From sequence record NC_011045.1: a stretch of DNA of 38,841 bases; one strand, written 5' to 3'. Position numbers and translations under genes: made by a program. This document shows, in pieces, positions 1,973 to 38,841 of this stretch. The stretch comes from Escherichia phage 13a. Numbering within the stretch: the first letter of the stretch is position 1; each line of letters starts with the position of its first letter. The notes beneath the pieces were generated by a model. It had not been told where the DNA came from. It did not search any database and was given only the letters and a program-made list of their open reading frames with translations.

Positions 1973-4624
1973 ATGAACACGATTAACATCGCTAAGAACG
2001 ACTTCTCTGACATCGAACTGGCTGCTATCCCGTTCAACACTCTGGCTGACCATTACGGTGAGCGTTTAGCTCGCGAGCAGTTGGCCCTTGAGCACGAGTC
2101 TTACGAGATGGGTGAAGCACGCTTCCGCAAGATGTTTGAGCGTCAACTTAAAGCTGGTGAGGTTGCGGATAACGCTGCCGCCAAGCCTCTCATTACTACC
2201 CTGCTCCCTAAGATGATTGCACGCATCAACGATTGGTTTGAGGAAGTGAAAGCTAAGCGCGGCAAACGCCCGACAGCCTTCCAGTTCCTGCAAGAAATCA
2301 AGCCGGAAGCTGTAGCGTACATCACCATTAAGACCACTCTGGCTTGCCTCACGAGCGTAGACAATACAACCGTTCAGGCTGTAGCAAGTGCAATCGGTCG
2401 AGCTATTGAGGACGAGGCGCGCTTTGGTCGAATCCGTGACCTTGAGGCTAAGCACTTCAAGAAAAACGTTGAGGAACAACTTAACAAGCGCGTAGGGCAC
2501 GTCTACAAGAAAGCATTCATGCAGGTTGTTGAAGCGGACATGCTATCTAAGGGTCTACTGGGCGGTGAGGCGTGGTCTTCGTGGCACAAGGAGGACTCCA
2601 TTCACGTTGGGGTTCGCTGCATTGAAATGCTAATTGAGTCTACCGGAATGGTTAGCTTACACCGCCAAAACGCTGGCGTAGTTGGTCAAGACTCTGAGAC
2701 TATCGAACTAGCACCGGAATACGCTGAGGCTATCGCAACCCGTGCAGGTGCACTGGCTGGTATCTCTCCGATGTTCCAACCTTGCGTAGTTCCTCCTAAG
2801 CCTTGGACCGGTATTACTGGTGGTGGTTATTGGGCTAACGGTCGCCGCCCACTGGCGCTGGTACGTACCCACAGCAAGAAAGCACTGATGCGCTACGAAG
2901 ACGTTTACATGCCAGAGGTTTACAAGGCTATTAACATTGCGCAAAACACCGCATGGAAAATCAATAAGAAAGTCCTAGCGGTCGCCAATGTCATCACCAA
3001 ATGGAAGCACTGCCCTGTAGAGGATATCCCAGCGATTGAACGTGAAGAACTCCCGATGAAACCGGAAGACATCGACACGAATCCTGATGCTCTCACCGCG
3101 TGGAAACGTGCCGCTGCCGCTGTGTACCGTAAAGACAAGGCTCGCAAGTCTCGCCGTATCAGCCTTGAGTTCATGCTTGAGCAAGCCAATAAGTTCGCTA
3201 ACCATAAAGCCATCTGGTTCCCTTACAACATGGACTGGCGCGGTCGTGTTTACGCTGTGTCAATGTTCAACCCGCAAGGTAACGATATGACCAAGGGTCT
3301 GCTGACGCTGGCGAAAGGTAAACCAATCGGTAAGGAAGGTTACTACTGGTTGAAAATCCACGGTGCAAACTGTGCGGGTGTCGATAAGGTTCCATTCCCT
3401 GAGCGCATCAAGTTCATCGAGGACAACCACGAGAACATCATGGCTTGCGCTAAGTCTCCACTGGAGAACACTTGGTGGGCTGAGCAAGATTCTCCATTCT
3501 GCTTCCTCGCGTTCTGCTTTGAGTACGCTGGGGTACAGCACCACGGCCTTAGCTACAACTGCTCTCTTCCGCTGGCGTTCGATGGGTCTTGCTCTGGTAT
3601 TCAGCACTTCTCCGCGATGCTCCTTGATGAGATAGGTGGTCGTGCGGTTAACCTGCTGCCTAGTGAAACCGTTCAGGACATCTACGGGATTGTCGCTAAG
3701 AAAGTCAACGTGATTCTACAAGCAGATGTAATCAACGGGACCGACAACGAAGTAGTTACCGTGACCGATGAGAACACTGGTGAAATCTCTGAGAAAGTCA
3801 AGCTGGGCACTAAGGCGCTGGCTGGTCAATGGTTGGCTTACGGTGTTACTCGCAGCGTGACTAAGCGTTCAGTCATGACGCTGGCTTACGGGTCCAAAGA
3901 GTTTGGCTTCCGTCAACAAGTGCTGGAAGATACCATTCAGCCAGCTATTGATTCCGGTAAAGGTCTGATGTTCACTCAACCGAATCAGGCTGCTGGATAC
4001 ATGGCGAAACTGATTTGGGAAGCTGTGAGCGTGACGGTGGTAGCCGCTGTGGAAGCTATGAACTGGCTCAAGTCTGCTGCTAAGCTGCTGGCTGCTGAGG
4101 TCAAAGATAAGAAGACTGGAGAGATTCTTCGCAAGCGTTGCGCTGTGCATTGGGTGACTCCTGATGGTTTCCCTGTGTGGCAGGAATACAAGAAGCCGAT
4201 TCAGACCCGCTTGAACCTGATGTTCCTCGGTCAGTTCCGTCTACAGCCAACCATTAACACCAACAAGGATAGCGAGATTGACGCGCACAAGCAGGAGTCC
4301 GGCATCGCTCCTAACTTTGTACACAGCCAAGACGGTAGCCACCTGCGTAAAACTGTAGTGTGGGCGCACGAGAAGTACGGAATCGAATCCTTTGCACTGA
4401 TTCACGACTCCTTCGGGACCATTCCTGCCGACGCTGCCAACCTGTTCAAAGCTGTGCGCGAAACTATGGTTGACACCTATGAGTCTTGTGATGTACTGGC
4501 TGACTTCTACGACCAGTTCGCTGACCAGTTGCACGAGTCTCAATTGGATAAAATGCCAGCACTTCCGGCTAAGGGAAACTTGAATCTCCAAGACATCCTT
4601 AAGTCAGACTTCGCGTTCGCGTAA
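1973..4624 (+). CDS. 1: T7-type single-subunit DNA-dependent RNA polymerase (883 aa)
   Basis: 883-aa ORF, MNTINIAKNDFSDIELAAIPFNTLADHYGERLAREQ... near-identical to T7 RNAP. Confidence 0.99.
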   Translation: MNTINIAKNDFSDIELAAIPFNTLADHYGERLAREQLALEHESYEMGEARFRKMFERQLKAGEVADNAAAKPLITTLLPKMIARINDWFEEVKAKRGKRPTAFQFLQEIKPEAVAYITIKTTLACLTSVDNTTVQAVASAIGRAIEDEARFGRIRDLEAKHFKKNVEEQLNKRVGHVYKKAFMQVVEADMLSKGLLGGEAWSSWHKEDSIHVGVRCIEMLIESTGMVSLHRQNAGVVGQDSETIELAPEYAEAIATRAGALAGISPMFQPCVVPPKPWTGITGGGYWANGRRPLALVRTHSKKALMRYEDVYMPEVYKAINIAQNTAWKINKKVLAVANVITKWKHCPVEDIPAIEREELPMKPEDIDTNPDALTAWKRAAAAVYRKDKARKSRRISLEFMLEQANKFANHKAIWFPYNMDWRGRVYAVSMFNPQGNDMTKGLLTLAKGKPIGKEGYYWLKIHGANCAGVDKVPFPERIKFIEDNHENIMACAKSPLENTWWAEQDSPFCFLAFCFEYAGVQHHGLSYNCSLPLAFDGSCSGIQHFSAMLLDEIGGRAVNLLPSETVQDIYGIVAKKVNVILQADVINGTDNEVVTVTDENTGEISEKVKLGTKALAGQWLAYGVTRSVTKRSVMTLAYGSKEFGFRQQVLEDTIQPAIDSGKGLMFTQPNQAAGYMAKLIWEAVSVTVVAAVEAMNWLKSAAKLLAAEVKDKKTGEILRKRCAVHWVTPDGFPVWQEYKKPIQTRLNLMFLGQFRLQPTINTNKDSEIDAHKQESGIAPNFVHSQDGSHLRKTVVWAHEKYGIESFALIHDSFGTIPADAANLFKAVRETMVDTYESCDVLADFYDQFADQLHESQLDKMPALPAKGNLNLQDILKSDFAFA

Positions 4625-4807: not shown

Positions 4808-4936
4808 ATGCGTAACTTCGAAAAGATGACCAAACGTGCTAACCGTAACGCTCATGACTTCGAGGCAACTAAGGGTCGCAAGTTTAATAAACCATTACGA
4901 ACCCGTGCACATAAACGCTGCTGGGAGGGTCAATAA
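4808..4936 (+). CDS. 1.1: gp1.1 small basic protein (42 aa)
   Basis: MRNFEKMTKRANRNAHDFEATKGRK... matches T7 gp1.1. Confidence 0.85.
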   Translation: MRNFEKMTKRANRNAHDFEATKGRKFNKPLRTRAHKRCWEGQ

Positions 4937-4937
4937 G

Positions 4938-5195
4938 ATGGGACGTTTATATAATGGGAACTTGAATGACTTCAAGGCTGCTTGCAACAGGCTATACCAG
5001 TTGGACTTTGCTGTTATAGCTGTTGAGCAGGAAGGTTCACCAAACATAAAGGCAACCATGTACCTTCGGATTGAAGACCGTACTGGTCGCATAGTGGTTC
5101 AGGAAGAGATTCACCACTGCGACGAAGACGTTCTGTACAATATGTGTACTGATTGGCTGAACCGTATGTATGACCAGTTGAAGGACTGGAAGTAA
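4938..5195 (+). CDS. 1.2: gp1.2 inhibitor of host dGTP triphosphohydrolase (85 aa)
   Basis: MGRLYNGNLNDFKAACNRLYQLD...DEDVLYNMCTDWLNRMYDQLKDWK matches T7 gp1.2; track ORF 4836..5195 is the same frame with upstream extension. Confidence 0.9.
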   Translation: MGRLYNGNLNDFKAACNRLYQLDFAVIAVEQEGSPNIKATMYLRIEDRTGRIVVQEEIHHCDEDVLYNMCTDWLNRMYDQLKDWK

Positions 5196-9412: not shown

Positions 9413-11601
<2,189 letters not shown>

Positions 11602-14574: not shown

Positions 14575-15175
14575 AAACTATCTCATTGTGCACATTAAAT
14601 CTGGTGAACTCGGTGAAACCCTTCTGGGGCAATACCGAGCCAAGCCATAGGGAGGATATATGAGAGGCAAGAAGTTAATCCTTGCGACCACAGAGAGTGG
14701 TTGTATCATCCCTACGTCACACAAACTTAATGCTGATGGTTATTTCCGAAAGAAGACGAACGGTGTCCTAGAGATGTATCACAGGACAGTCTGGAAGGAA
14801 CACTACGGAGATATACCAGAAGGGTATGAAGTAGACCACAAGTGTAGGAACAGGGCGTGCTGTAACGTAGAGCACCTCCAGTTACTAGAAGGTTCTGAGC
14901 ATACAGTCAAGACAAACAGGGAACGCTACGCTGACCGTAAAGAGTCCGCGAAGGAATACTGGTTGGAGACTGGATGTACAGGAACACACTTAGGTGAGAA
15001 GTTTGGTGTAACGTTCTCTGCAGCTTGTAAGTGGATTAGAGAGTGGAAGGCGTAGAGACTATCCGAAAGGAGTAGGGCCGAGGGTGAGATTCCCTCGTTA
15101 CCCGAAGCGCCAGACAGTCAACTCAAAGGCTGATGATATAGTCCGACACTCCTAGTAATAGGAGAATACAGAAAG
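14575..15175 (+). mobile_element. Group I self-splicing intron in DNA polymerase gene (601 nt)
   Basis: Exon 1 ends in U, intron ends in G; internal guide GUGCAC (14588-14593) pairs with exon GUGCAU (14569-14574); R/S-like core gacta (15057-15061) / gatatagtcc (15135-15144); P9-like hairpin 15149-15164; joined exons restore full 704-aa DNAP. Confidence 0.85.
14660..15055 (+). CDS. Intron-encoded HNH homing endonuclease (131 aa)
   Basis: SD agggagg before ATG; HNH motif YEVDHKCRNRACCNVEHLQLLEGSEHTVKTN; paralogous to the 7.7 and post-19 HNH ORFs. Confidence 0.85.
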   Translation: MRGKKLILATTESGCIIPTSHKLNADGYFRKKTNGVLEMYHRTVWKEHYGDIPEGYEVDHKCRNRACCNVEHLQLLEGSEHTVKTNRERYADRKESAKEYWLETGCTGTHLGEKFGVTFSAACKWIREWKA

Positions 15176-18034: not shown

Positions 18035-18313
18035 ATGGGTAAGAAAGTTAAGAAGGCCGTGAAGAAAGTCACTAAGTCCGTTAAGAAAGTCGTCAATGGA
18101 GTGGCTGGCGGTCTGGCTGGTCTGGCTGGTGGCGCTGGTGAAGCACAGGTGGTGGAAGCACCACAAGCTGCCGCACAGATTGTTGACGTACCTGAGAAAG
18201 AGGTTTCCACTGAGGACGAAGCACAGACCGAAAGCGGACGTAAGAAAGCTCGTGCTGGCGGTAAGAAGTCCTTGAGCGTTGCCCGTAGCTCTGGCGGGGG
18301 TATAAATATATGA
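18035..18313 (+). CDS. 7.3: gp7.3 tail/virion assembly protein (92 aa)
   Basis: MGKKVKKAVKKVTKSVKKVVNGVAGGLAGLAGGAGEAQ... T7 gp7.3-like. Confidence 0.88.
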   Translation: MGKKVKKAVKKVTKSVKKVVNGVAGGLAGLAGGAGEAQVVEAPQAAAQIVDVPEKEVSTEDEAQTESGRKKARAGGKKSLSVARSSGGGINI

Positions 18314-18705
18314 CAGATTGTATCGAGTGGACTGGCTACCTCACAAAAGATGGGTACGGCGAAACTCGACTGAATGGTGTCAAATTTAGGGTTCATCGTC
18401 TAGAATGGATTAAACAAAGAGGCCCAATACCTGAAGGTCTAGTTGTTCGCCATAAGTGCGATAACCCTAAATGTTACAATATCGAACACCTTGAGCTAGG
18501 AACAACTCAGGATAACACTAGAGATAGGGTCTTGAGGAATAGAAGCGCAAAGGGAGTACGTAATGGAAATTCCAAATTAACACCTGATGTCGTTCTGGCA
18601 ATACGCGCAAGTAGTAAGACCCACAAGCTGATAGCCGAAGAGTTCGGTGTATCCAAATCAGTTGTGACACAGATACGAGCACGTAAGACATGGAGGCATA
18701 TCTAA
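18310..18705 (+). CDS. 7.7: HNH endonuclease gp7.7 (131 aa)
   Basis: HRLEWIKQRGPIPEGLVVRHKCDNPKCYNIEHLELGTTQDN HNH motif; T7 gene 7.7 position. Confidence 0.9.
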   Translation: MTDCIEWTGYLTKDGYGETRLNGVKFRVHRLEWIKQRGPIPEGLVVRHKCDNPKCYNIEHLELGTTQDNTRDRVLRNRSAKGVRNGNSKLTPDVVLAIRASSKTHKLIAEEFGVSKSVVTQIRARKTWRHI

Positions 18706-35847: not shown

Positions 35848-37608
35848 GTGTCTACTCAATCCAATCGTAATGCGCTCGTAGTGGCGCAACTGAAAGGAGA
35901 CTTCGTGGCGTTCCTGTTCGTCTTATGGAAGGCGTTAAACCTTCCGGTGCCCACTAAGTGCCAAATAGATATGGCTAAGGTGCTTGCGAATGGAGACAAC
36001 AAGAAGTTCATCTTACAGGCTTTCCGTGGTATCGGTAAGTCGTTCATCACGTGTGCGTTCGTTGTGTGGTCCTTATGGAGAGACCCTCAGTTGAAGATAC
36101 TTATTGTATCAGCCTCTAAGGAACGTGCAGACGCTAACTCCATTTTCATCAAGAACATCATTGACCTGCTACCGTTTCTCAGTGAGTTGAAGCCAAGACC
36201 CGGACAGCGTGACTCTGTAATTAGTTTCGACGTAGGTCCAGCTAAGCCTGACCACTCTCCTAGTGTAAAATCAGTAGGTATCACTGGTCAGTTAACAGGT
36301 AGCCGTGCTGACATTATCATTGCGGATGACGTTGAGATTCCGTCTAACAGTGCTACTATGGGTGCCCGTGAGAAGCTATGGACTCTCGTTCAGGAGTTCG
36401 CTGCGTTGCTTAAACCGCTGCCTTCCTCTCGTGTTATCTATCTTGGCACACCTCAGACTGAGATGACTCTCTATAAGGAACTTGAGGATAACCGTGGGTA
36501 TACCACTATCATCTGGCCTGCTCTGTATCCAAGGACGCGTGAAGAGAACCTATATTACTCACAGCGACTTGCTCCTATGCTGCGTGCTGAGTACGATGAG
36601 AACCCTGAGGCACTCGCTGGGACTCCAACAGACCCTGTGCGCTTCGACCGTGATGACCTCCGTGAACGTGAGTTGGAATACGGTAAGGCTGGCTTCACGC
36701 TACAGTTCATGCTTAACCCGAACCTGAGTGATGCCGAGAAGTACCCTCTGAGGCTCCGTGACGCTATCGTAGCGGCCTTAGACTTAGAGAAGGCACCAAT
36801 GCACTACCAGTGGCTTCCGAACCGTCAGAACATCATTGAGGACCTTCCTAACGTTGGCCTTAAGGGTGATGACCTTCATACGTACCATGATTGCTCCAAC
36901 AACTCTGGTCAGTACCAACAGAAGATTCTGGTCATTGACCCTAGTGGTCGCGGTAAGGACGAAACAGGTTACGCTGTGCTGTACACCCTGAACGGTTATA
37001 TCTACCTTATGGAAGCTGGAGGTTTCCGTGATGGTTACTCTGATAAGACCCTTGAGTTGCTCGCTAAGAAGGCTAAGCAGTGGGGAGTCCAGACGGTTGT
37101 CTATGAGAGTAACTTCGGTGACGGTATGTTTGGTAAGGTGTTCAGTCCTATCCTTCTAAAACACCACAACTGTGCGATGGAAGAGATTCGTGCTCGTGGT
37201 ATGAAGGAGATGCGTATTTGTGATACCCTTGAGCCAGTCATGCAGACTCACCGCCTTGTCATTCGTGATGAGGTCATTAGGGCCGACTACCAGTCCGCTC
37301 GTGATGTAGATGGTAAGCATGACGTTAAGTATTCACTGTTCTACCAGATGACCCGCATCACTCGTGAGAAAGGCGCTCTGGCTCATGATGACCGATTAGA
37401 TGCCCTTGCGTTAGGCATTGAGTATCTCCGTGAGTCCATGCAGTTGGATTCCGTTAAGGTCGAAGGTGAAGTGCTTGCTGACTTCCTTGAGGAGCACATG
37501 ATGCGTCCTACAGTAGCTGCTACTCATATCATTGAGATGTCTGTGGGAGGAGTTGATGTGTACTCTGAGGACGATGAAGGCTACGGTACGTCTTTCATTG
37601 AGTGGTGA
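35848..37608 (+). CDS. 19: Terminase large subunit gp19 (586 aa)
   Basis: GTG start (track); [54 protein letters not shown]... near-identical to T7 gp19. Confidence 0.97.
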
Positions 37609-37644
37609 TTTATGGGCCAAGGAAGGCCACTTTAAGGAGGTAAT

Positions 37645-38106
37645 ATGATAAGTAAGAAGAAGTATACAGTTGATAAGGATACTGGCTGCTGGAACTTTAA
37701 GGGATGTAAGACGAAGACTGGTTATGGTCGTCTCCGTGTAAATGGAGTCCATTGGATGGCCCACAGGTATTCCCTGAGTTGTCACCTAGGCAGACCGATA
37801 GCTGATGGAATGGTTGTGATGCACCTATGTGATAATCCGTCATGTGTTAACCCTGAGCATCTTAAAGAAGGGACTCAGAAGGAGAATATGGATGACTGTA
37901 AGGCCAAAGGTAGGATGTACAGGCCGGGTGCCACAGGAAAACAAAAGACCAGTACGGCGAAGGTTGCCTATCACGATGACTGGCGTAAAGACCAAGTTAT
38001 TCGCTATCATGTACGTTGGAAATGGAAGCCATCTCGAATTGCTGAGAAGATGAGGCTATCTATAACGTGGGTTAAGAGGGTCTTAGAGGAGTACGTAAGT
38101 CTTTGA
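37645..38106 (+). CDS. Free-standing HNH homing endonuclease (153 aa), inserted between gene 19 and phiOR
   Basis: ATG with taaggaggt SD; HNH motif HWMAHRYSLSCHLGRPIADGMVVMHLCDNPSCVNPEHLKEGTQKEN; rare-codon rich; no counterpart at this position in T7 as recalled. Confidence 0.85.
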   Translation: MISKKKYTVDKDTGCWNFKGCKTKTGYGRLRVNGVHWMAHRYSLSCHLGRPIADGMVVMHLCDNPSCVNPEHLKEGTQKENMDDCKAKGRMYRPGATGKQKTSTAKVAYHDDWRKDQVIRYHVRWKWKPSRIAEKMRLSITWVKRVLEEYVSL

Positions 38107-38158
38107 TATTTGAAAATAGTGAAACAGGTCTAAATGTATGTTTTTAAAGGCTGGAATC

Positions 38159-38181
38159 TAATTCGACTCACTATAGGGAGA
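38159..38181 (+). promoter_or_regulatory. T7-type promoter phiOR
   Basis: taattcgactcactatagggaga. Confidence 0.85.
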
Positions 38182-38282
38182 GCCTACCTAAAGATAACTA
38201 TAAGACTTACTATCAGACTTAAAGTGTCCTATAAGGTAGGTTGTTATTATTGTTAATACAACCAACATAAAGGAGGAGACTC

Positions 38283-38432
38283 ATGTTCCGCTTATTGTTG
38301 AACCTACTGCGGCATAGAGTCACCTACCGATTTCTTGTGGTACTTTGTGCTGCCCTTGGGTACGCATCTCTTACTGGAGACCTCAGTTCACTGGAGTCTA
38401 CCGTTTGCTCTATACTCACTTGTAGCGATTAG
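38283..38432 (+). CDS. 19.5: gp19.5 (49 aa), small hydrophobic protein
   Basis: MFRLLLNLLRHRVTYRFLVVLCAALGYASLTGDLSSLESTVCSILTCSD, T7 gp19.5-like; aaaggagg SD. Confidence 0.8.
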   Translation: MFRLLLNLLRHRVTYRFLVVLCAALGYASLTGDLSSLESTVCSILTCSD

Positions 38433-38509
38433 GGTCTTCCTGACAGACTGATGGCTCACCGAGGGATTCAGCGGTATGATTGCATCACACCACTTCATCC
38501 CTATAGAGT

Positions 38510-38640
38510 CAAGTCCTAAGGTATACCCATAAAGAGCCTCTAATGGTCTATCCTAAGGTCTATACCTAAAGATAGGCCATCCTATCAGTGGAACCTAAAG
38601 AGGGTCTTAGAGAGGGCCTAAGGAGTTCCTAGAGGGTCCT
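38510..38640. repeat. Dispersed CCTAA(A)G-type motifs preceding the right terminal repeat
   Basis: cctaag/cctaaag at about 38515, 38552, 38565, 38594, 38615. Confidence 0.4.
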
Positions 38641-38671
38641 TTAAAATATACCATAAAAATCTGAGTGACTA

Positions 38672-38841
38672 TCTCACAGTGTACGGACCTAAAGTTCCCC
38701 CATAGGGGTACCTAAAGCCCAGCCAATCACCTAAAGTTACCTTTCAGTTGACCTTGAGGGTCCCTAAGGGTTGGGGTTGGTCCTTGGGTTTACCTTTGAG
38801 TTGGTCCTTTGGTGTTACCTTGAGTGTCTCTCCTTGTCCCT
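38672..38841. repeat. Right direct terminal repeat (170 bp)
   Basis: Identical to 1-170 by eye. Confidence 0.93.

Follow-up and report, generated by a model that had tools for sequence, protein, structure and literature searches.

The sequence analysed here (the window) is the complete T7-like genome of Escherichia phage 13a, 38,841 nucleotides in length, which is approximately 93% identical to T7 across its first 20 kb. Close to its right end, between the terminase large subunit gene (gene 19) and gene 19.5, it carries gene 19.4, an ORF beginning 36 nt past the gene 19 stop in the ORF list and coding for an HNH (His-Me finger) endonuclease. A sequence-only reading had singled out this ORF for its strong SD sequence and for a clear HNH motif in its product, and all of these features stand: the ORF is present in the ORF list with an ATG start, it is preceded by the SD sequence TAAGGAGGT, and its translation contains the motif HLCDNPSCVNPEHLKEGTQKEN, with a Pfam HNH_3 match above the cutoff. 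The first bases of the SD sequence (TAAG) belong to a conserved CTTTAAG, which in the alignment closes the spacer element shared with other phages. Being an intergenic ORF with an SD sequence of its own, outside any intron or intein, gene 19.4 is free-standing; a scan of positions 37300-38841 against Rfam matched no known RNA family. The coordinates of all features are listed in the table.

Gene 19.4 is an already known feature, annotated in the 13a genome and in dozens of its relatives: by exact-sequence look-up, its product is ACF15936.1 / YP_002003987.1 of Escherichia phage 13a, named “HNH endonuclease” at NCBI and “Gp19.4” in UniRef, the YP_002003987.1 entry being identical to the window protein. 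Our literature search found no paper on gp19.4 or on phage 13a function; the literature on Teseptimavirus and Yepe2 yielded nothing specific to the HNH gene that follows gene 19, and that mentioning I-TslI was silent on the gene 19.4 locus.

Table. Features of the gene 19-gene 19.5 interval in the window (“filled” denotes the haplotype with gene 19.4)
Feature	Coordinates	Strand	Basis or remark
Gene 19 (terminase large subunit, 586 aa); left flank, presumed source of read-through	35848..37608	+	ORF list
Inverted repeat GGCCAAGGAAGGCC just 3′ of the gene 19 stop	37615..37628	+	Homologous to T7 GACCACGGATGGTC; alignment
SD sequence of gene 19.4, TAAGGAGGT	37633..37641	+	3 nt upstream of ATG
Gene 19.4, free-standing HNH (His-Me finger) endonuclease gene	37645..38106	+	ATG start, 153 aa; ORF call, Pfam, PHROG, exact database match
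gp19.4 N-terminal catalytic domain, residues 1-92 (predicted)	37645..37920	+	Model pLDDT ~90 over residues 1-90
gp19.4 HNH motif HLCDNPSCVNPEHLKEGTQKEN, residues 60-81	37822-37887	+	Translation
gp19.4 C-terminal three-helix HTH-like domain, residues 105-152 (predicted)	37957..38100	+	Model, Foldseek, weak HTH_23 match
A+T-rich spacer, gene 19.4 stop to phiOR	38107..38158	+	Filled haplotype only
phiOR, promoter of the T7-RNAP class, TAATTCGACTCACTATAGGGAGA	38159..38181	+	One mismatch to consensus; transcription start 38176
phiOR leader to gene 19.5	38182..38282	+	Leader type linked to the HNH gene in Teseptimavirus
Gene 19.5 (49 aa); right flank of the cassette	38283..38432	+	ORF list

That the gene is extra with respect to T7, as the initial reading had it, holds true: in T7 (V01146) there is no ORF between the end of gene 19 at 39130 and the start of gene 19.5 at 39389, an interval that includes phiOR (39229) and measures 258 bp versus 674 bp in the window. 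The C-terminal 235 aa of gp19 are 100% identical to those of T7 gp19. The junctions of the cassette were defined by pairwise and multi-genome alignments. On the left, 29 nt found in T7 ahead of the inverted repeat are missing from the filled haplotype, while the CTTTAAG after the repeat is kept in both; a left junction directly after TGATTTATG was considered and rejected, as the wider alignment shows that the filled allele keeps both the hairpin and CTTTAAG. On the right, the window and T7 have just the promoter core in common, and homology resumes at ACCAACATAAAGGAGGAGACTC, near 38258, with good homology from ACCAACATAAAGGAGG, about 25 nt before gene 19.5.

The inverted repeat itself, the T7 counterpart of which (GACCACGGATGGTC) lies at about 3244-3257 of locus L008, is a conserved element of Teseptimavirus, T3-like and other loci, in filled and empty haplotypes alike. 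Both sides of its stem differ between T7 and the window (GACC/GGTC to GGCC/GGCC, an exchange of A/T for G/C), so that pairing is kept. Taken by itself, its fold energy is not significant (z-score -0.27 in the window and -0.35 in locus L019), and only the T7 hairpin reaches a z-score of -2.5, via a different pairing. With such weak z-scores and no terminator-like site, the hairpin was dismissed both as a terminator and as a significant structure.

The phiOR promoter was recognized with a pattern that gave zero chance matches in shuffled sequence. At position -13 it has T in the window versus A in T7, and this T is common to the filled-haplotype relatives that were aligned; in Salmonella phage Vi06 the initiation region is altered in addition (TATTAGGGGAGA). 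All 29 records that match most of positions 38141-38282 are among the HNH-carrying records, indicating that the phiOR variant and the leader travel with the gene. The leader of the filled haplotype is closer to leaders from other genera than to that of T7, as exemplified by the stretch AAAGATAACTATAAGACT. In T7, phiOR presumably adjoins the packaging signal. In Berlinvirus-like phages and Helsettvirus, the phiOR leader contains variable tandem repeats, with a unit of about 12 nt (CTTAGTGACTACT) in up to about 11 copies (L041, 3830-3970; L006, 1760-1850; L007, 1790-2100), the units in fPS-52 being about 100 nt long.

The protein matches Pfam HNH_3 (PF13392) over residues 39-82 with 36.8 bits (E = 3e-09; gathering score 24.8), and PHROG 6254, “HNH endonuclease”, over its full length (E = 1.1e-62). 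Weaker Pfam matches were to zf-His_Me_endon and HTH_23, and a search of NCBIfam with gp19.4 gave no match. An AlphaFold2 model built with 39 homologues in the input (mean pLDDT 83) predicts a compact N-terminal domain (residues 1-90) with a beta-beta-alpha-metal fold, followed by a disordered linker (residues 99-108) and by three C-terminal helices (105-124, 129-136 and 140-152), which Foldseek matches to the HTH domains of Fis, DeoR and sigma-4. The family profile aligns with the I-PpoI segment His98-Asn119; by this alignment, H60 is the proposed general base and N81 the proposed metal ligand, while C15, together with C62, C67 and H72, may form a structural Zn site. All six residues are unchanged in 39 out of 39 homologues, and gp19.4 is therefore predicted to be catalytically intact. 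The predicted product is thus a two-domain monomer, in which a Zn-stabilized His-Me finger nuclease would be joined by a flexible linker to a putative sequence-reading, DNA-binding HTH domain. In the orthologues from Yersinia phage AKS2022HT54F (L077) and locus L041, the segment between nuclease and HTH is expanded by Ser/Gly-rich repeats (SGSSGDSSGDSSGGSSG), which fits a flexible tether.

Comparison of the model with PDB entries places I-HmuI, the intron-encoded homing nickase of Bacillus phage SPO1 (1u3e), first (Foldseek probability 1.0, 26% identity over 98 columns), followed by I-PpoI and Smad MH1. Both I-HmuI and I-PpoI are homing endonucleases. I-HmuI and the gp19.4 model have the same domain order, with an N-terminal His-Me finger and a C-terminal HTH in an extended monomer, although the match is mainly over the nuclease domain (TM-score 0.41), and the Cys3His Zn site proposed for gp19.4 is closer to that of I-PpoI. 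In T4-like phages, the Seg and Mob genes are likewise intergenic, vary in presence among close relatives and propagate through cleavage of the gene-less allele, with co-conversion of flanking DNA; the Seg proteins, however, are GIY-YIG enzymes with demonstrated activity, whereas gp19.4 is an HNH protein and a predicted nuclease.

Besides gene 19.4, the window has three HNH_3 genes, at 9413-9895, 14660-15055 and 18310-18705, corresponding in position to T7 genes 3.8, 5.3 and 7.7. The closest of them to gp19.4 is the 7.7-like copy (E = 4e-19, 41% identity in the local tblastn match). These copies and their T7 counterparts gp3.8, gp5.3 and gp7.7 resemble gp19.4 in the HNH_3 fold and motif, small size, abundance of rare codons and free-standing position between essential genes, but they occupy other loci, have a different or shorter C-terminal tail, and show only 20-35% identity to it in full alignment. 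The three T7 genes have been deleted together, and the reduced genome was viable (PMC12153263).

A tblastn search with gp19.4 retrieved 100 phage records at E ≤ 1e-20, of which 91 cover at least 80% of the query. The matches listed are located either close to the right end of the genome or, where annotation was examined, directly 3′ of the terminase gene, and their labels vary (“HNH endonuclease”, “putative homing endonuclease”, “HNH homing endonuclease”, “gp7.7 homolog”). Orthologues following gene 19 were found in at least five genera of Studiervirinae, Helsettvirus (fPS phages), Pektosvirus (MA1A) and Przondovirus (cmc355D) among them. The same position and two-domain layout are seen in the orthologues from Vi06 and Yepe2 (“gene 7.7 / gp7.7 homolog”), JeanTinguely (“putative homing endonuclease”), Rambo (“homing endonuclease”) and PP74 (“HNH homing endonuclease”).

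The sequence-only reading had proposed an alignment of the gene 19-19.5 interval to define an empty site, and clean empty sites were indeed found, both in Teseptimavirus and in Berlinvirus-like phages. Among 16 Teseptimavirus loci from IMG/VR, sampled as those with a gp19 C-terminal region 97-100% identical to that of the window, gene 19.4 is present in eight and absent from eight, T7 being one of the empty ones. Filled and empty loci form two discrete haplotypes, with junctions identical in every member. The Berlinvirus-like phages provide a cleaner case than Teseptimavirus: their filled and empty genomes have phiOR and the leader in common, and differ only from the gene 19 stop to position -17 of phiOR.

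Such optional presence bears directly on a packaging-associated role, which had been raised initially as an alternative, namely that gp19.4 is an accessory HNH protein working with terminase in the manner of HK97 gp74 and helping to cut concatemers. The gene does adjoin that for the terminase large subunit, as HNH genes of the gp74 type are encoded beside terminase genes, and it is close to phiOR and to the right genome end. HNH proteins of that type are conserved and required in their own phages, with genes beside the small terminase gene at cos. Gene 19.4 shares the adjacency, but not the conservation in all phages with the same packaging machinery; it is optional, lies 3′ of the gene for the large subunit, in a phage type whose genome ends are direct terminal repeats instead of cos, and encodes a DNA-binding tail, the combination of HNH_3 and HTH being that of intron-encoded and free-standing homing enzymes. 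Its nearest paralogues are, moreover, the dispensable T7 gp7.7 and gp5.3. Because T7 and half of the close relatives (8 of 16), with gp19 C-terminal regions 98-100% identical, do without the gene, we consider a packaging role extremely unlikely.

The promoter scan revealed no T7 promoter between 33035 and 38159, and the terminator scan of 37400-38500 gave no terminator-like site. Having neither a promoter nor a terminator of its own, gene 19.4 should therefore be read from late transcripts running through gene 19, that is, it would be co-transcribed with gene 19 late in infection. Its codon usage is unlike that of the terminase gene, in agreement with the richness in agg, aga and ata pointed out at first reading: AGR codons account for six of the 12 Arg and ATA for three of the five Ile, and rare codons (AGG, AGA, ATA, CTA, CGA, CGG, GGA and CCC) amount to 11.1 per 100, as opposed to 3.9 per 100 in gene 19. 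Rare codons probably damp gene 19.4 output. All three HNH paralogues in the window are also rich in them (9.9-14.5 per 100). The gene 1.2 homologue at 4836-5195 of the window, which matches PHROG 2949 (“dGTPase inhibitor; target for F exclusion”), has unusually many as well (12.6 per 100).

Three orthologues initially appeared truncated, and only one of them, in Yersinia phage fPS-53 (L078, 700-1030), is truly 5′-deleted: approximately the first 47 codons are gone, including that for the Zn ligand Cys15, and what is left is annotated as a 97-aa “endonuclease”. This copy is probably decaying. The other two were rejected as truncations, since the break in the fPS-7 copy falls on an ambiguous base and is probably an assembly artefact, and the AKS2022HT54F copy is intact, with the expanded linker described above. 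A truncated relative, the bias toward rare codons and the optional presence would all be compatible with gene 19.4 being an inactive relic, a former homing endonuclease gene without function that awaits deletion. However, the ORF is intact in all 15 orthologues that were translated in full, the catalytic and Zn residues are invariant, and the dN/dS ratio among close ortholog pairs is 0.06-0.15 in both domains, at dS values of 0.4-1.2, which makes the relic explanation very unlikely.

Across genera, identity of the HNH N-terminal domain tracks that of gp19 (r = 0.82 over 171 non-independent pairs); between Teseptimavirus and Berlinvirus-like phages, for instance, it is about 0.70 for the catalytic domain and about 0.73 for terminase. 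For the HNH N-terminal domain, comparison of the window with coliphage relatives gives dS values of 0.28-0.52; for gene 19, the values among coliphage relatives are 0.17-0.30. The correspondence with gp19 identity indicates that the gene is an old resident, which has diverged largely together with its neighbour, rather than a frequent inter-genus jumper. Such terminase-like conservation of the N-terminal domain speaks somewhat against homing, as it fits long vertical residence, possibly with a benefit to the phage, equally well. Strong purifying selection on both domains, divergence of the N-terminal domain at about the rate of gp19, and occupation of one locus in at least five genera could all be expected of a domesticated nuclease, which, to the benefit of the phage, would have been retained beside the terminase gene and phiOR because it damages HNH-less co-infecting genomes or acts in some other way in inter-phage competition, with gene conversion as a mere by-product. 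While sequence alone does not distinguish it from ordinary homing, we regard such domestication as unlikely, given that half of the close relatives, including T7, lack the gene and that a truncated copy exists. The same three properties would fit the idea that gene 19.4 is a long-retained weapon that cuts the gene 19-phiOR region, near packaging signals, of HNH-less co-infecting relatives; although quite unlikely in our estimation, this would, if true, give the gene 19.4 carrier a competitive edge.

The flanking sequences narrow down the probable site of action. No fixed nucleotide differences separate filled from empty genomes in the last 1500 nt of gene 19, where divergence between the two classes equals that within classes, so that linkage stops at the cassette boundary; judging from these alignments, the flanks appear to recombine freely between filled and empty classes. 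Polymorphisms in gene 19 conferring immunity or left by co-conversion, which we had considered, were rejected on the same zero count, and since there is no fixed immunity polymorphism in gene 19, the target would be expected inside the replaced spacer. Among carriers, no raised similarity or co-conversion tract is visible beside gene 19.4, which detracts from the case for homing.

On balance, gene 19.4 is likely to be a free-standing homing-endonuclease gene, whose predicted product would cut or nick the empty spacer of co-infecting relatives. The notion of a selfish homing element, put forward in the sequence-only reading, fits the comparative data, namely presence or absence at a single site in nearly identical genomes, an I-HmuI-like nuclease with an HTH, the decayed copy in fPS-53 and the three dispensable T7 paralogues; the target envisaged there, the gene 19/19.5 junction, gives way to the spacer between gene 19 and phiOR as the likely one. 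In a mixed infection with an empty, T7-type relative, gp19.4 would bind a long site in or next to this spacer and nick or cut it, and recombination with the 13a allele, by way of the near-identical gene 19 and gene 19.5 flanks, would repair the break. Repair would copy the HNH gene, the phiOR variant and the leader into the recipient, while the carrier would itself be immune, since replacement has removed most of the empty-type spacer from its genome.

At this locus, the domains of the protein appear to have been shuffled. The catalytic domain is highly conserved, with about 70% identity from one genus to another, and at least three variants of the C-terminal domain occur that look unrelated. 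In the window, gene 19.4 is chimeric: upstream of approximately position 37885 it shows 94-98% nucleotide identity to coliphage relatives, as opposed to about 50% downstream, which places a recombination breakpoint inside the HNH ORF at about 37885-37900, at the end of the catalytic core. From the breakpoint onward, both the C-terminal domain and the leader of phiOR resemble the Vi06-type allele more closely, and most coliphage orthologues have a C-terminal variant that differs from this Vi06-type one. The occurrence of quite different C-terminal domains in same-site orthologues would be odd for a homing enzyme if that domain alone set the shared target.

In one respect, gene 19.4 simply adds a further optional gene of the HNH homing-endonuclease kind to a phage family already known to have several, and its description is mainly of annotation value. 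Under the homing interpretation, however, the locus would constitute a well-defined and easily testable system, with two discrete alleles at a fixed site in several genera. Its assets would include empty sites with clean borders, DNA-binding domains that have been exchanged, and a variant of phiOR and the leader that is linked to the gene. The gene 19-phiOR interval is also a recombination boundary, to be avoided or exploited in phage phylogenies and engineering.

Finally, in Salmonella phage Vi06 (L022, 1063-1930), an insert of approximately 800 bp interrupts gene 19 after the Walker B “ADD” and carries a 200-aa ORF (1302-1904). An intein was rejected on account of the many stop codons in the insert, which is instead a group I intron; the corresponding Rfam model gives 45.1 bits (E = 4.7e-10), just short of the gathering score (50). 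In Vi06, an intron in the terminase gene is thus combined with an HNH gene behind it.
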